The notes beneath the pieces are model-generated. The model did no database searches, was not told the origin of the DNA, and saw nothing but the letters and a program-made list of their open reading frames with translations. The translations under genes were made by a program, and so were the position numbers. From a virus, in IMG/VR virus record IMGVR_UViG_3300042508_000910: 64,000 nucleotides of DNA. One strand, given 5' to 3'. Below are positions 54,847-61,703 of this stretch, in pieces; position 1 is the stretch's first letter, and each line of letters opens with the position of its first letter.

Positions 54847-56232
54847 TTATCTAGTTTCTCGCCATTGTAAACTTGCAAAAGTATTGCTTGCTCCACCACC
54901 AATTCCAGATCCAATTATAACAAAAACATTACTATTTGTGCTATCAATATTTTGACTAATATAACCTCTTTTTGCGCTTGATAAAGTTTGTATTTGAGAT
55001 TGAGAACTAAATTTTCCTGCTCCTTGGCCTCCAGCAATACAATATGCAGCATCTACTAACATACCACTAGTAAAATTAACACTTGTTGCACTAATATTAT
55101 ATTGAACAACGCTTTCATCGTTTGCACTTATCCAAGTTCCACCAACTATTTGACCCGTGCTTGGAATTCTCCAAAGTTCATAAGTTATTGCTTCTGTTGC
55201 GGTATAAATATTAGCCATGTTTGGTCTAACAACGCTTCGATTTGGTTTGCCATAATATCCAGTTTTTAGTGCTATTGCGACTAGCGGAAGTTGGCTAGTT
55301 GTAGGCACTGATCTTGCTGTAAGATTTCTTGCTGAAAAATCTACTCCTGCTTCATTGTATCCACCTTCACTCATTACTGTAGCGCAAATTTGATCCATAG
55401 TATCTGTTCCAACTGCTACAGCATAATTTCTAATTTCACATCTAACTGGAAGATTTGGGTTACTCCAATAAACAGTTGGTTTGTTGTTGCTATTATAAAA
55501 TTCATGAGCAATAACTGATTCACCATTATGTACAAATCCAGCTCGTAGTCTTCCTACTCCTAGCCATTGAAAATCTGCTGTGAATAATTGTGTTTTTGTT
55601 CGGTCTAAATTAAATTGAGAAATTCCACTTCCATTACATTTATCTATATTCCAATTGTTTTGGGTTATTCTTTCTTCTGATACAACTCCCGAAACATCGT
55701 TTCTTAAAACAAGAGCTAGTGTTCCATCTCCACTTTGTTCAAAAAATATTCCGTTGCGTTCATCAAAAAGACCAATTCTTTTATTTGTACCAGCTCTATA
55801 TCCTGTAAAATTAAAACTTTGAAAAGTTAATTGACTTTTTCCTGGCATGTAGTGATGATACATTCTGCTTTGGTGAATTGTAAAATCATTAGCTCCAGTT
55901 CCAACTTGGAGCACTGCTTTTGCTTGATTGATATTAAATGTTGTATTAGAATTTGTACCACTAGTTTTAGTTAATAATTCTGTTTCTTCTCCGTAAACGT
56001 GAGAATAATCCGCAAGAGTAAATGGATTTGAAATTCTTTGGCGGCCAAATGCGTCTATTTGAGCAGATTGTGCTGAAAAATTAGTTACATTAACATTAAT
56101 ACCACTATTTAAAATTCCTTCTATATTATCTATTTTACTAAAATCAAGAGCTTGGAAAGCACCGCTATCACTATTGTAAACAAGAGATATTCTTTTCTCT
56201 GATGGATCTGGAATTAGAACATTATTAACCAT
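54847..56232 (-). CDS. Virion structural protein (DAFGR-type, lectin-like)
   Basis: DAFGRQRISNPFTL, YMPGKSQ, DFQWLGVGR, NLPVRCEI; GTGTAA at 56244-56249. Confidence 0.65.
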   Translation of the reverse strand: MVNNVLIPDPSEKRISLVYNSDSGAFQALDFSKIDNIEGILNSGINVNVTNFSAQSAQIDAFGRQRISNPFTLADYSHVYGEETELLTKTSGTNSNTTFNINQAKAVLQVGTGANDFTIHQSRMYHHYMPGKSQLTFQSFNFTGYRAGTNKRIGLFDERNGIFFEQSGDGTLALVLRNDVSGVVSEERITQNNWNIDKCNGSGISQFNLDRTKTQLFTADFQWLGVGRLRAGFVHNGESVIAHEFYNSNNKPTVYWSNPNLPVRCEIRNYAVAVGTDTMDQICATVMSEGGYNEAGVDFSARNLTARSVPTTSQLPLVAIALKTGYYGKPNRSVVRPNMANIYTATEAITYELWRIPSTGQIVGGTWISANDESVVQYNISATSVNFTSGMLVDAAYCIAGGQGAGKFSSQSQIQTLSSAKRGYISQNIDSTNSNVFVIIGSGIGGGASNTFASLQWRETR

Positions 56233-56304
56233 TTGATAATAAATTACACTAAATTAAAAATTTAATTACACTATTATAGTATATATCCCTTAAGAGATAT
56301 ACCT

Positions 56305-56721
56305 TGGACCCGAGAGGAGTTGAACCTCTGTCTTTTAAAAAGTTAAATTAAAATACTACAAGTTTAGCCTATTCCGTTGTTTCGCAATAGTGTCGAACAG
56401 GCAATCGGGCTATTGCTATTTATTTAATTCTAGATCTGGCCTTGGTCAAATCTAGCCATTATAATCAATTTAAAAATCAAATAAAAAGGATTTAAACTGA
56501 TACATCTAAATACCCACTAGTCTAGTAGATGTGTCGTAGATAGCAGGTCGCAGGTTTTAGGCTGCGATTAGGGAGTCCTTCTTGTGAGAAACTCTCAAGG
56601 AGAAACTACCCTTTAACTTAGCTGGTTTGGCAGTTAAGTATTTTAAAGTTGTTTAAAGAGTCCACTTTAACTCTACTTGCATTCTAATTCCAATTTTTAA
56701 AATCGATACCAGTACGGGCCC
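56305..56721 (-). ncRNA. ssrA: tmRNA
   Basis: 5' GGGCCCG pairs with 3' CGGGUCC-A (G3:U wobble); T-arm AGAGG-UUCAACU-CCUCU; internal ORF 56631-56557 AKPAKLKGSFSLRVSHKKDSLIAA*; CCA not encoded. Confidence 0.92.
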
Positions 56722-56745
56722 AATGAGAAAGAACTATAAATCGTC

Positions 56746-56751
56746 TTACAC
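56746..56751 (-). promoter_or_regulatory. GTGTAA motif upstream of tmRNA
   Basis: 24 nt before the predicted mature 5' end. Confidence 0.55.
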
Positions 56752-56754
56752 AGA

Positions 56755-56970
56755 TTATACTTTACTTAAAAGTTTTTTGCAATCTTTTTTATATATAAAT
56801 ATAAATTTTAATCTAACTCCGTTTACATCTGAACTTAAATATTGTTGAGCTAAACAAGGATATTCGTCAGGACAATAATTTGTGTCAATATCTTTTTCAT
56901 CAATATTATAATTTAAGGCTTTTTGCTTTTTATATTTATTCCAGCCATTTTCATTTTTTATTACTTCCAT
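56755..56970 (-). CDS. Small hypothetical protein (start revised to 56970)
   Basis: ATG shortly after TATAAT of a TTGAAT-N16-TATAAT promoter; PDEYPCL motif. Confidence 0.55.
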   Translation of the reverse strand: MEVIKNENGWNKYKKQKALNYNIDEKDIDTNYCPDEYPCLAQQYLSSDVNGVRLKFIFIYKKDCKKLLSKV

Positions 56971-56990
56971 AAAAAAATTATATAAAAAAA

Positions 56991-57019
56991 TTGACAAAAT
57001 TCAAAGATCTTTGTATTAT
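56991..57019 (+). promoter_or_regulatory. sigma70-type promoter TTGACA-N17-TATTAT
   Basis: Points into a structured, apparently non-coding region. Confidence 0.7.
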
Positions 57020-57024
57020 AAGCT

Positions 57025-57330
57025 ATTGACATAGCCTTCTTATTATAGGCAATTTTGATAGTTTTATAGAAAACTGTTTAGTACATGGTTTCAAGAGATA
57101 GCAACGCTGTGAAGACTTGCGACTATGAAAACCCTCATTGTGCATTATATGGCTTTGAGGTTAATGTGTGGATGTATGGGACGGCAGTATGTACAGGGAG
57201 TAAGCCACCTCGCCCCTATAAGTGCCGTAGTCTGTTTCCTCGCAAGAGGAAAATGGGAGTTAAAAGAAAAGTAGAGATCTTGTACTAGGCACAACCTCAA
57301 TATAAAAAATCTGAGGGAAAGTCTTCTATG
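57025..57330 (+). ncRNA. Unassigned structured RNA with pseudoknot
   Basis: GC-richer than surroundings; 15-bp closing stem, GNRA hairpin, several internal stems, 8-bp crossing helix; G-U pairs favour the + strand. Confidence 0.65.
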
Positions 57331-57366
57331 GGATATTAAAGAAAAGTTAATAATTAAGATAAGATA

Positions 57367-57882
57367 CTAATACCAAACTTCATTATGAATTCTTCTCAAT
57401 ACTCTAATCCAATTCTTTAGGTTATAAGATATATCATCTCTTTCTGCAATCTCAAAACCATTCTTAGCTATATTATAATAAATACTTTCTGATGGATATG
57501 ATCTTCTCAACTTCTCTAAACTCTTATAGAAAAAGCCAAGAAATACTGTGACAGATTTTGCTGTATCTTCATTTAATTCTAATTGAAAGAAATATTTATT
57601 CTGAAGTGGATATTCTATGAGATTATAAAAATTGCTACTTACAGCTTCTGATATATATTCCTTCTCTTCAAAAGAACATTTTATATCTTTACTATATTTT
57701 ACTATTGTAAGCTCTGTGAATACTGGGAAACTAATATCTACTATACCATTTATATCTTCTTCTGTAACTTTATTTATTATTTCTGGTAAGCAATCTGGAT
57801 CTTGTATAAGCAAAAAGGTTTTTTCTGGTGATAAACCTAGCTTCTTTGCAAAAAAATCTATATCCCTCTCTGAAACCGTCAC
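57367..57882 (-). CDS. Hypothetical protein
   Basis: 171 aa; GTG start 8 nt after ATGTAA variant motif. Confidence 0.65.
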   Translation of the reverse strand: MTVSERDIDFFAKKLGLSPEKTFLLIQDPDCLPEIINKVTEEDINGIVDISFPVFTELTIVKYSKDIKCSFEEKEYISEAVSSNFYNLIEYPLQNKYFFQLELNEDTAKSVTVFLGFFYKSLEKLRRSYPSESIYYNIAKNGFEIAERDDISYNLKNWIRVLRRIHNEVWY

Positions 57883-58261: not shown

Positions 58262-59326
58262 TTATAGCTTTAAATTATCAAAATCATCGTCAGATATGTC
58301 TGTTTTTCTTGCGCCTATTTTATATGTTGAAATTTCTGTTTCTTGTGGTGCAACTTGAACTTTGCTACTGTCGAGATAGCTATCTAACCAGCCAGCGATA
58401 GGATTATCTTTTTGATTGAATATCTTTTTATATCCTAATGATCTCAAGCGAGCATCACAAAGCCATTTTGAATATCCACCTAGAACTTCAGCATTTAAAC
58501 CTAATAGAGAGCCATTACTAAAAAGATATTCCGCCCATTCAATCTCATTCTTAGCGGCTTGTTCATAAAACGCATATATTTTATCTTCACTTTTTTTGAC
58601 TATAGAAGTAAAACCTTCTTTATCTTCTTCCTTAAGAATCTTTAGAAGATTTTGAGTAGTAGCAAAATGTAAAGCTTCATCTCTTTGAATAAACTTGATG
58701 ATTTTAGCATTTCCTTCCATTTTACCACGATATCCAAAATAGAAAGAGCAGGCGAATGAGACGTAAAATACAAGACCTTCCATTACATTAACAGAAAGAA
58801 TACAATCAAATATCTTTTGTTTTAAGTCTTTCTTATCATCATCGCCAAGAATTTTATCAAAATTATTTCTAATTAACTCGGCACGAGATACGATTTCTTT
58901 ATCTTCCATGATGCTATCGAAAAATTTACTAGCATCTGGATGTACATTATTTAATAGATATGAATAAGAGTAACTGTGAATACCCTCAAATCTTTGCCAA
59001 GTATTCATACATATTTCAAGCTCTGGATTGCTTACATAATCTTTAAGAGAATGTATACTTCTCGAAAGCATGCTATCACCAAGAGTTTGGAATTTTAGAT
59101 TAGTGTCAAATACAAATCTTTCTTGACCAGCAAGCTCTTTATAATCGCTACGATCTTTATTAAGAGCGATTTCATGAGGCCACCAGAAAAATTCTTCTTG
59201 CTTCTTAAACAATTCAAAGAAAATAGGATATTTAAAACGATCATATCTTTGAAGATTAAGATCTTCTCCAAAGAATAGAGGTTGTTTTGTATAATCTATA
59301 TTTTTTAAATTTAAAACACTTTTCAT
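58262..59326 (-). CDS. nrdB: Ribonucleotide reductase class Ia beta subunit
   Basis: FFWWPHEI, QTLGDS, FEGIHSYSY, EGLVFYVSF, RDEALH, VAPQETEISTY. Confidence 0.95.
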   Translation of the reverse strand: MKSVLNLKNIDYTKQPLFFGEDLNLQRYDRFKYPIFFELFKKQEEFFWWPHEIALNKDRSDYKELAGQERFVFDTNLKFQTLGDSMLSRSIHSLKDYVSNPELEICMNTWQRFEGIHSYSYSYLLNNVHPDASKFFDSIMEDKEIVSRAELIRNNFDKILGDDDKKDLKQKIFDCILSVNVMEGLVFYVSFACSFYFGYRGKMEGNAKIIKFIQRDEALHFATTQNLLKILKEEDKEGFTSIVKKSEDKIYAFYEQAAKNEIEWAEYLFSNGSLLGLNAEVLGGYSKWLCDARLRSLGYKKIFNQKDNPIAGWLDSYLDSSKVQVAPQETEISTYKIGARKTDISDDDFDNLKL

Positions 59327-59329
59327 AGG

Positions 59330-61591
59330 TTATAATTTACACGCTCCAGAAGAACAATCACGATCTTCTTTTTGATTCATTAATTGTTCTTTATCTCCAT
59401 CATCAGTATTATTGTAATAAAGACTGATTAAGCCTAAAGAATATGCAAGCATTATTTCTTTCATAACTTTTGCATCAGGAAGAACATTGTTTTCATAATG
59501 AGAATAGTTATAGTATACATTAGTTGATATGGCCATGTCAATGTATTTTTGAATTATAGCGTTTACTTTTAGTAGACCAGAATTATCTTTAAAATCATAA
59601 GCTAATTCATAATTACCATCATACTTTCCTACTCCTGGAACTAATACTGGAAGTTTACCCATTTTACTCATTTTATAAGTAATTAAACTACGAATAGGTT
59701 CAACTCCATTTGTTGAAGATTGAATTACGGAACTACTCTCACAAGGCATGCATGCAGAAAGAGTAGAATGTCTTAAACCAAATTCTTTTATTTCTTTTCT
59801 TAGTTTTTCCCAATCAAGAGACAATTTTCTTTTACATAATTCATCTACTTTATCTTTGTAAGTATCAATAGGTAAAATGCCTTTTGAATATTTTGTCCTA
59901 TCAAACTTCTCGCACTTACCCTTTTCTTTAGCAAGTTCTAGGCTTGACTTTAAAAGATAGTATTGAAAATGCTCCATCCACTCATCTAATACAGGCAAGC
60001 ATTTATCTGAATTATATTTTAATTCACTCTTAGCGAAAAAAGCTGCAAGATTAGTTATTCCAACACCAAGACTACGACGTTTTTTAGCAAAATTTTCAGC
60101 AGCAATATTAAAGTAATCTTGAATTTCAATGATTTCATCAAGAAATCTTACGATAAGATCGCAAGTCTTTTCAAGATCTTGCCAGTTTTTTATTTCTAAC
60201 ATATTCACTGCTGAAAGAATACACATTCCAATTTCGCCTTCTTTATCATTATAATCATTTAGTGGAATAGTTGGATGTATAACTTCTGTACAAAGATTAC
60301 TCATTGTAACTTTATCCAACCAAGCGCCATGATTGTTAGCATGGTCTACATTAAGAATATATATTCTACCAGTTTCAACTCGTTCTTTAATAATTAGAGA
60401 GAATAATTTACGAGCAGATACTTTCTTTTTAATTTTTAATTTTTTAGATTCACATTCTTTATATATCTTATCAAAATCTTTTGTACCCCAAGCTTCATAT
60501 AATTCTGGTACTTCTGCTGTATTAAATAGAGTAATTTCTTCGTCCTTAAGAACTCTATCATAGAACAACTTACTCATTCCAACTGTATAGTCTAACTTTC
60601 TTACTCTATTATCATCTGTTCCAGCATTATTCTTTAATACTACAATATCTTCTATTTCATAATGCCACCATTGTATATTGCATGTTGCACTTCCACCTCT
60701 TAACCCATTTTGTTGCCAAGCTTTTACGCTACTTTCATATATTTTTAGAAATGGAATTAAGCCAGTATGAACAACTTCACCATTCTTAATAGGCGATCCT
60801 ATAGCTCTAACTTTTGAGACATCAATACCTATTCCACAACGATTTGCTGTAGCCATACTTACTGCAGTTGCACTAGCGGTAATACTTTCTTTACTATCAT
60901 CAACACCAATTAAACAACAACTTGCGTAATTTTTAGTAGATGTCCTAACTCCTGCCATTACTGGAGTTGGTAAATTAATCTTGTGCTTGCTAATAGCATC
61001 ATAAAATTTACGAACATAATTTAAACGTGTCTCTTTTGGATAATTTATAAAAGCATAAGCAGCAATTAATACATAAGCAAATTGTGGAGTCTCATATATT
61101 AAACCGTTTGTTCTATTTTTTATTAAATATTTATCGCATAATTGTTTAATACCAGCATATGTAAAATTATAATCTCTATCGTGATCTATAAATTCGCCTA
61201 TTTTATTTAGCTCATCTTCATCATACTTTTCTAATAGTATTGAATCATAGATTTTATTTTTTATGTTATTTTGTATAAATTCTAAAAGTCTTGGAGCATG
61301 TTTACCTTTCCAAACTTCTTTTCTCAATTGATAATTTAAAAGACGACTTGCAACATATTGGTAATTTGGACTAGATATTGATATTAAATTTGCTGCACTT
61401 TCTATTAGTAGTTTATGGATTTCTTTCGTTGTAATCCCTTCATGCATATTGATATTAGCATTGATTTCTATATCTGTTAGACTTACTCCAGAGTAACCAT
61501 CTATTGCCCATTTGATTACTTTATTAATTTTTTCTATGTTAAATTTTTCAGTTGATCCATTGCGTTTTTTGACGAGTAAGTTTTTATTCAT
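59330..61591 (-). CDS. nrdA: Ribonucleotide reductase class Ia alpha subunit with ATP cone
   Basis: VKKRNG, PTPVMAG, ASCCLI, SNLCTE, MPCESSS...NGVEP, SLYY, CSSGAC. Confidence 0.97.
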   Translation of the reverse strand: MNKNLLVKKRNGSTEKFNIEKINKVIKWAIDGYSGVSLTDIEINANINMHEGITTKEIHKLLIESAANLISISSPNYQYVASRLLNYQLRKEVWKGKHAPRLLEFIQNNIKNKIYDSILLEKYDEDELNKIGEFIDHDRDYNFTYAGIKQLCDKYLIKNRTNGLIYETPQFAYVLIAAYAFINYPKETRLNYVRKFYDAISKHKINLPTPVMAGVRTSTKNYASCCLIGVDDSKESITASATAVSMATANRCGIGIDVSKVRAIGSPIKNGEVVHTGLIPFLKIYESSVKAWQQNGLRGGSATCNIQWWHYEIEDIVVLKNNAGTDDNRVRKLDYTVGMSKLFYDRVLKDEEITLFNTAEVPELYEAWGTKDFDKIYKECESKKLKIKKKVSARKLFSLIIKERVETGRIYILNVDHANNHGAWLDKVTMSNLCTEVIHPTIPLNDYNDKEGEIGMCILSAVNMLEIKNWQDLEKTCDLIVRFLDEIIEIQDYFNIAAENFAKKRRSLGVGITNLAAFFAKSELKYNSDKCLPVLDEWMEHFQYYLLKSSLELAKEKGKCEKFDRTKYSKGILPIDTYKDKVDELCKRKLSLDWEKLRKEIKEFGLRHSTLSACMPCESSSVIQSSTNGVEPIRSLITYKMSKMGKLPVLVPGVGKYDGNYELAYDFKDNSGLLKVNAIIQKYIDMAISTNVYYNYSHYENNVLPDAKVMKEIMLAYSLGLISLYYNNTDDGDKEQLMNQKEDRDCSSGACKL

Positions 61592-61697
61592 ATAGAGAAG
61601 TAAAATCTATATTACATCTTTCTTTAAGAAAAGAAAAGAAAAAAAATAAAAGTTATAAACAAAAAAACTTTTTAATTTTTTATGTGTAGAATAAAAA

Positions 61698-61703
61698 GTG
61701 TAA
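61698..61703 (+). promoter_or_regulatory. GTGTAA motif
   Basis: 9 nt before ATG at 61713. Confidence 0.6.

Follow-up and report, generated by a model that had tools for sequence, protein, structure and literature searches.

Comparative sequence analysis confirmed that a 64,000-nucleotide stretch of viral DNA (IMG/VR virus record IMGVR_UViG_3300042508_000910; hereinafter, the window) carries on its plus strand, at positions 57029-57348, a predicted stand-alone, promoter-driven gene for a non-coding RNA (ncRNA) with a multiply knotted fold. The carrier is a large, AT-rich, uncultured freshwater (lake) phage, and the RNA family, which is absent from Rfam, is a new class of phage RNA. Two features of this RNA are unusual, namely, a single loop with two covarying docking sites and two purine-rich boxes that are kept letter-identical.

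Genomic context of the ncRNA gene

The window is an AT-rich, phage-like sequence (about 29% GC), and the related IMG/VR records are 132-172 kb long, one of them rated 100% complete. Every large open reading frame (ORF) between 15.7 and 64 kb is on the minus strand, and in clades A and B of the family (see below), the ncRNA gene is the only plus-strand element within a 48-kb block of minus-strand genes (Table 1). Conservation among the relatives begins at an invariant ACAUAG (57029) and stops abruptly past the second of the two purine-rich boxes (57348). An earlier reading of the window, made from the sequence only, had placed an RNA at 57025-57330; the recognition of an element of about 300 nt beside the tmRNA stands, but the exact ends do not. 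The GC content rises to 45-52% at 57100-57300, compared to 25-30% in the flanks. The promoter that this reading had proposed, TTGACA-N17-TATTAT, agrees with 11 of the 12 consensus positions and is the best site in the region; in all three clades, TTGACA and a TAnnAT hexamer are found at a constant distance upstream of the 5' ACAUAG. A search for an intrinsic terminator downstream of the ncRNA gene found none, and we infer the transcript and its ends from the promoter and the edges of conservation.

The arrangement of the neighboring genes differs among the clades. In clades A and B, the ncRNA gene is divergent from a small ORF and the tmRNA gene, with the promoters back to back; in clade C, the tmRNA is located 6-16 kb away from the ncRNA, and the small ORF stays with the tmRNA rather than with the ncRNA. 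The ncRNA gene always adjoins the ribonucleotide reductase (nrd) cluster, but its orientation relative to this cluster flips between clades: the two are convergent in clades A and B, whereas in clade C the ncRNA gene is co-directional with nrdA and lies 140 nt upstream of it. No RNA-linked protein gene traveling with the ncRNA was found in the neighborhoods of the relatives. The lack of such a gene, together with the flipped nrd orientation, points to an independent, trans-acting gene and speaks against roles as a leader, antisense unit or origin.

Table 1. Coordinates of the ncRNA gene, its structural elements and its neighbors in the window. Percentages of paired positions are somewhat inflated because the alignments were fitted to the models.
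Feature	Position	Strand	Remarks
Virion structural protein gene	54847-56232	-	
One-piece tmRNA	56304-56721	-	110.5 bits; Rfam and ARAGORN
Predicted sigma-70-type promoter of ncRNA	56991-57019	+	-35 at 56991-96, 17-nt spacer, -10 at 57014-19
Predicted ncRNA gene, about 320 nt	57029-57348	+	covariance models R1/R2, GC spike, G-U pairs, no conserved ORF
H1 hairpin	57034-37 / 57047-50	+	4 pairs, 100% paired, 3 changed on both sides
H2 hairpin	57058-57077	+	5 model pairs, 96-98% paired, 4-5 changed on both sides
H3 closing stem	57078-57092 / 57274-57288	+	9 model pairs in three segments, 97.8-100% paired
H4/H4b stem-loop	57098-57126	+	57098-101 / 57123-26 and 57105-07 / 57119-21; loop carries X
X, loop segment with two alternative partners, Y and Z	57111-57118	+	
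H5 hairpin	57133-57160	+	5 pairs, 95-96% paired, 3-4 changed on both sides; large conserved loop
H6 pseudoknot	57168-57173 / 57203-57208	+	6 pairs, 97.8% paired, 2 changed on both sides
H7	57181-86 / 57223-28	+	7 pairs, 3 changed on both sides; encloses H8 and the 3' strand of H6
H8	57192-201 / 57212-220	+	inner H8: 5 pairs, 99.6% paired, 4 changed on both sides
Y, first partner of X	57229-57233	+	pairs with 57113-57117
H9 hairpin	57234-57253	+	5 pairs, all changed on both sides; GCAA loop in the window
Box M1	57254-57272	+	19 nt, predicted single-stranded, purine-rich, nearly invariant
H10 hairpin	57295-57316	+	8 model pairs, 95% paired, 5-6 changed on both sides
Z, second partner of X	57319-57326	+	pairing with X crosses H3 and H4
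Box M2	57329-57347	+	second box copy; 3' tail; conservation ends directly after it
nrdB and nrdA, ribonucleotide reductase genes	58262-61591	-	

Relatives and distribution of the family

With the 171-aa product of a neighboring ORF as the query, 35 IMG/VR loci were retrieved, and in 27 of these, a homologous RNA stretch is located directly beside the ORF. A pattern search for the boxes added further loci, and nhmmer then yielded about 85 matches in more than 80 IMG/VR loci. Among these matches, there are 49 distinct full-length sequences that fall into three clades, of which A includes the window, B accounts for the majority, and C is the most divergent. Further members are carried by 17 contigs from JGI lake metagenomes and match the models end to end. 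In four phage records, the ncRNA is present in exactly one copy per record. The ncRNA is more conserved at the sequence level than its protein neighbors: within clade B, it is 94% identical, compared to 68-87% identity for the adjacent 171-aa protein.

Two specific RNA patterns did not match in 185,579 bacterial and archaeal genomes and, as far as exact patterns tell, the family appears to be limited to phages. A wider two-box pattern run across viral contigs produced, beyond the known loci, only chance matches, and a blastn search of INPHARED with the ncRNA gave no match. Four close relatives by the 171-aa protein (L003, L008, L018 and L021; records G005-G008), in which the tmRNA lies several kb off, lack an ncRNA copy in fragments that are 14-54% complete; in these phages, the ncRNA is either optional or located off the contigs.

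Comparison with known RNA families

In agreement with the sequence-only reading, the RNA could not be assigned to any known class. Rfam searched with the window at the gathering score returned no family for the ncRNA, and at E<=10 the locus (56700-57700) gave no relevant family, with RNase P, group I intron, tmRNA and riboswitch all missing from the results. The models of the large RNAs ROOL and GOLLD do not match at either the gathering score or E<=10, and the Polynucleobacter-1 motif (RF01718) matches neither the window nor the locus. The lack of a strong Rfam match, the abundance of covariation (see below) and the lack of conservation of ORF 57085-57288 all agree with the novelty and the RNA nature of the element.

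Several classes were considered individually and rejected. For tmRNA (RF00023), Rfam and ARAGORN call only the neighbor at 56304-56721; the ncRNA starts with ACAUAG and contains neither a CCA end nor a tag frame. A faint likeness to P7/P9 of group I introns had been perceived from the sequence; the group I model (RF00028) does not match at E<=10, the order of the helices differs, and the ncRNA is transcribed from a promoter of its own and is not flanked by exons. A riboswitch or another cis leader (for example, cobalamin or 2'-dG) does not fit the convergent arrangement in clades A and B, or clade C, the only one in which the ncRNA lies upstream of nrdA and where nrdA retains its own promoter; no riboswitch model matches. 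For a circularly permuted RNase P, the elements from P5 to P18 would all need to be missing or moved. In four related records, including one rated complete, no genes for SmpB, RnpA or reverse transcriptase were detected, so that the ncRNA is not a retron, and both a phage RNase P protein and a phage SmpB are lacking.

Precedents among phage RNAs include species 1 and 2 (rnaC and rnaD) of the large lytic phage T4, which are stable, promoter-driven RNAs of unknown function encoded in the tRNA region; unlike these tRNA-like molecules of about 140 nt, the ncRNA is much larger. We found no description of the ncRNA in searchable catalogues and papers. The csRNA catalogue of IMG/VR holds models of at most 151 nt (PMC10690425), and the subject of the Melnitz paper (PMC9004378) is a different RNA, namely, a two-piece tmRNA with a glutamine riboswitch.

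A conserved, multiply knotted fold

The window copy taken alone has a weak folding signal (minimum free energy z-score of -1.34 for the plus strand and -2.37 for the minus strand), so that the case for the fold rests on comparison with relatives. Two covariance models were built from the clade-B alignment (A3), one of the nested helices (R1) and one in which the pseudoknots are written as nested pairs (R2), and 46 distinct sequences were aligned to each of these with end-to-end matches. In the 46 sequences, the 59 nested pairs of R1 are 96.7% paired, compared to 31-49% in slid controls, a percentage that, like the others given here, is somewhat inflated because the models guided the alignments (A4 and A5). 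Changes on both sides were detected in 41 of the 59 pairs, and the covariation score of R1 was 0.412, compared to 0.04-0.07 for the slid controls; none of 500 shuffles reached this value. Because the double changes are many and occur in every helix, the predicted fold is secure despite the model fitting. At many positions, G-U pairs are found in most of the sequences, which is consistent with a fold of the plus strand only.

In the predicted fold, a pair of hairpins at the 5' end is followed by a long stem that closes off a core of several helices, within which there is one pseudoknot, and by a hairpin at the 3' end; in the other pseudoknot, a loop segment of one of the core hairpins (X) pairs with Z, which is located in the 3' region. 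All complementary segments on which the sequence-only reading had built its model exist, and covariation supports the closing stem (H3), hairpins H2, H5, H9 and H10, helix H7 and the pseudoknot between X and Z. Two of the proposed helices fared differently. The ATAGC/GCTGT pairing is not conserved, and the relatives retain instead the two short helices of H4/H4b; the pairing of GACT (57121) with AGTC is not conserved either, and the version that covaries is that between X and Y. Hairpin H1, the H6 pseudoknot, helix H8 and the 3' box had not been noticed.

The helices differ in detail between the clades. All 9 model pairs of H3 show changes on both sides, and this stem comprises 15 bp in the clade of the window and 9 bp in clade B; H2 also varies in length between clades. 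One pair of H4 changes from A-U to G-C in clade C, and the H4b pair that closes the X loop is C-G in 25 and U-A in 21 sequences, with zero exceptions. In H6, which crosses H7, the 3' strand is located in the loop of H8. In each clade, the H5 loop (57138-57155 in the window and its equivalents in L011 and L059) contains a 6-nt self-complementary word, the place and letters of which differ between clades; this word hints at a symmetric kissing loop.

A loop with two partners, a duplicated module and twin boxes

The X loop has two conserved partners that exclude each other. The pairing of X with Z comprises 7 pairs that are 99.4% paired, 4 of them with two-sided changes, some of which fall within clade C alone. 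The pairing of X with Y comprises 5 pairs that are 98.3% paired, compared to 38-57% when slid, with 2 changed on both sides, although this covariation is mostly one clade-level change and, for that reason, X:Y could be a relic of duplication rather than a functional state. The energy of the X:Y duplex is -5.3 to -11.1 kcal/mol and that of X:Z, the stronger of the two, -9.9 to -12.5 kcal/mol; Y is transcribed about 90 nt before Z.

Each of the two partners of X is accompanied by a copy of the same box: M2 directly follows Z, and M1 follows Y via hairpin H9. The stems of H5 and H10, which precede Y and Z, respectively, are letter-identical in the window. Given that Y and Z each come with the same box and a like-stemmed hairpin, we infer that the ncRNA carries a tandem duplication of a module with three parts: a hairpin, a segment complementary to X and a purine-rich box of 19 nt. 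Only one letter of the boxes varies, and it is C in both copies in 52 of 67 distinct sequences and U in both in the remaining 15, with no mixed case (0 of 67); this letter has flipped separately at least three times and tracks one pair of H10. No column of the ncRNA alignment makes a Watson-Crick pair with the variable letter, complements of the box are not enriched within the window, and no reader of the boxes was found.

Possible functions of the ncRNA

We consider it moderately probable that the ncRNA is a trans-acting scaffold with a duplicated module, in which X docks on either module and the twin boxes have a common reader. The RNA would act in trans as a folded scaffold, with X forming the weaker pairing with Y first and the stronger one with Z last, such that the RNA either refolds during transcription, the docking of X being a guide of co-transcriptional folding, or toggles between two states. 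The two identical, single-stranded boxes would be read by one common partner, for which the candidates are a pyrimidine-rich nucleic acid and a factor that binds single-stranded RNA either as a dimer or through two sites; this partner would probably belong to the sphere of translation and RNA turnover that is served by the neighboring tmRNA. With regard to the phage tmRNA itself, RNAduplex on the full-length RNAs yielded only meaningless long duplexes, and the short complementarities to the tag region or the T-arm of the tmRNA that were seen by eye are not kept between clades. The ribozyme, decoy and replication-primer roles put forward in the sequence-only reading are conjectural. Large RNAs with so much conserved tertiary structure are rare, and the few that have been solved are ribozymes, riboswitches and self-assembling cages. 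A size of about 320 nt suits structure determination, and the family is abundant in phage metagenomes from lakes. Demonstration of a box reader, a switch or an assembly would provide a function for a new class of phage RNA and could explain why phages that lack SmpB pair this ncRNA with a tmRNA of their own.

The two partners of X are also compatible with a different, in our opinion unlikely, explanation, namely, that the ncRNA is an ornate, self-assembling RNA, copies of which would join through loop-loop and loop-strand pairings, with one of the X partners or the self-complementary word of the H5 loop as the intermolecular bridge. In the ornate RNAs ROOL, GOLLD and OLE, pairings initially detected through covariation turned out to bridge separate molecules, and kissing loops of the symmetric kind are present; ROOL/GOLLD-type RNAs are located near phage tRNA islands (PMC12286853). 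Like ROOL and GOLLD, which come from phages and prophages (PMC12286853), the ncRNA is phage-encoded beside a tmRNA/tRNA island, stand-alone and multiply pseudoknotted, with no linked or known protein partner, and the precedent implies that covarying long-range pairings need not be intramolecular. The incompatibility of the two covarying pairings of X within one molecule and the presence of the 6-nt word in every clade fit this possibility. However, the ncRNA is much smaller than ROOL or GOLLD (about 320 nt, compared to roughly 580 and 800 nt or more) and differs in the layout of the helices; twin identical boxes and a duplicated docking module are undescribed for those RNAs, and their Rfam models do not match. 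The loop palindromes are short and possibly due to chance. Each chain contains a single X, so that Y and Z could not be satisfied together, even in an oligomer.

A catalytic function appears improbable. The boldest version of this explanation, which elaborates on a resemblance to RNase P that had been suspected from the sequence, is an RNA-processing enzyme with a rearranged RNase P-like core, in which H3 would correspond to P2, H10 to P3, the GUAA/GGAA linker to J3/4, and the X:Z pairing to P4; such a ribozyme would mature the phage tmRNA or tRNAs. Catalytic RNAs typically have large, intricate folds in which many unpaired nucleotides are invariant, as is the case here, the size of the ncRNA is similar to that of bacterial RNase P RNA (RF00010), and the adjacent tmRNA is a potential substrate that needs 5' maturation. 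In RNase P, the strands follow the order P2-J2/4-P4 ... P2-P3-J3/4-P4. The order in the ncRNA is a closing-stem strand, a linker, X, the other closing-stem strand, a hairpin, an A-rich linker and Z, which would coincide with the RNase P order if the chain were opened after P4; in both RNAs, the partner of a strand located just inside the closing helix is found past a hairpin and an A-rich linker, and the word GGAAAGUC precedes Z in the window. However, this CR-I-like word (57313-57322) is at the 3' end, which is the wrong side, instead of near the 5' end, with its partner (57111-18) upstream, and the X:Z helix is continuous, without a bulged U. The RF00010 model (RNase P type A) yields no match at E<=10 in any of four related phage records, although it scores above the cut-off in 8 of 14 control genomes; no RNase P family and no known self-cleaving motif in Rfam matches the locus at E<=10. 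By-eye comparison of the helix maps recognized no counterparts of P5-P18, the specificity domain (P7-P14, CR-II/III) or the P15 loop for the tRNA 3' end. The likeness comes down to one 8-mer and a generic pseudoknot topology. We give very little credence to the fully specified form of this idea, namely, a new catalytic RNA with a chain rearranged in a non-circular manner, such that X:Z, the hairpin before it and the A-rich linker restore the P2-P3-P4 active-site core of RNase P; the task of this RNA would be maturation of the phage tmRNA and tRNAs, and the boxes would hold either the substrate or a host protein.

There is little chance, in our estimation, that the ncRNA acts in cis, either as a primer or R-loop RNA at a replication origin or as a leader or antisense element that controls read-through into nrd. 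The constant proximity of the nrd cluster is suggestive, as are the lack of a terminator and the alternative pairings of X, which resemble an expression platform. Purine-rich sequences such as the boxes would form stable RNA-DNA hybrids, and a T-rich tract complementary to the boxes is present at 61630-61653. Nevertheless, the orientation relative to nrd flips between clades, which leaves no conserved sense or antisense role, and conservation ends with the RNA, without reaching the downstream DNA. The sequence-only reading had also contemplated an origin, but the GC skew only tracks gene direction, with no switch near 57 kb, and there is one copy per genome. The T-rich tract, considered as a target of the boxes, is in promoter DNA, upstream of the nrdA start site and of the conserved extended -10 promoter that nrdA keeps, and we judge the complementarity to be a coincidence. 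Finally, we see almost no chance that the locus, instead of being an RNA gene, encodes a small protein or represents a conserved site on the DNA: apart from the window, only the closest relative (L002) has the 67-codon ORF 57085-57288 open, and in the other clade members the open frames are different or missing, such that no frame is conserved; the substitutions follow base pairs rather than codons, and the predicted product has no Pfam or PHROG match.

Additional observations on the neighboring genes

The small ORF between the tmRNA and the ncRNA (80 codons, 56755-56997 on the minus strand; probably starting at Met10, with the ATG at 56970) immediately precedes the tmRNA and is read in the same direction. 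Its product, a small conserved protein with Cys residues, is 37-81% identical in 26 loci and has no Pfam or PHROG family. In clade C, its homologue is found beside the tmRNA and not beside the ncRNA (L022, 7144-7335). This protein is a candidate for a tmRNA-linked factor in phages without SmpB. A promoter-like sequence, TTGAAT-16-TATAAT (56977-57004, minus strand), is back to back with the promoter of the ncRNA, and the start predicted from it coincides with the ATG at 56970; accordingly, the mRNA from which the small ORF is translated may be leaderless and extend into the tmRNA. The phage tmRNA (56304-56721 on the minus strand in the window; records G001-G008) encodes an unusually long tag of 24 residues, the sequence of which varies by clade, with A-A or V-A retained at the C-terminus.

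The layout of the region upstream of nrdA (61592-61700 on the minus strand of the window; L007, L025, L041, L059 and others) is common to all clades and comprises an ACAC-containing word, a T-rich tract with isolated C residues, and an extended -10 element (TGTAATAT) about 25 nt before the start codon. In two relatives, ARAGORN predicted a tRNA-Ser with the unusual anticodon ACT (L047, 11504-11592; L093, 8391-8479).
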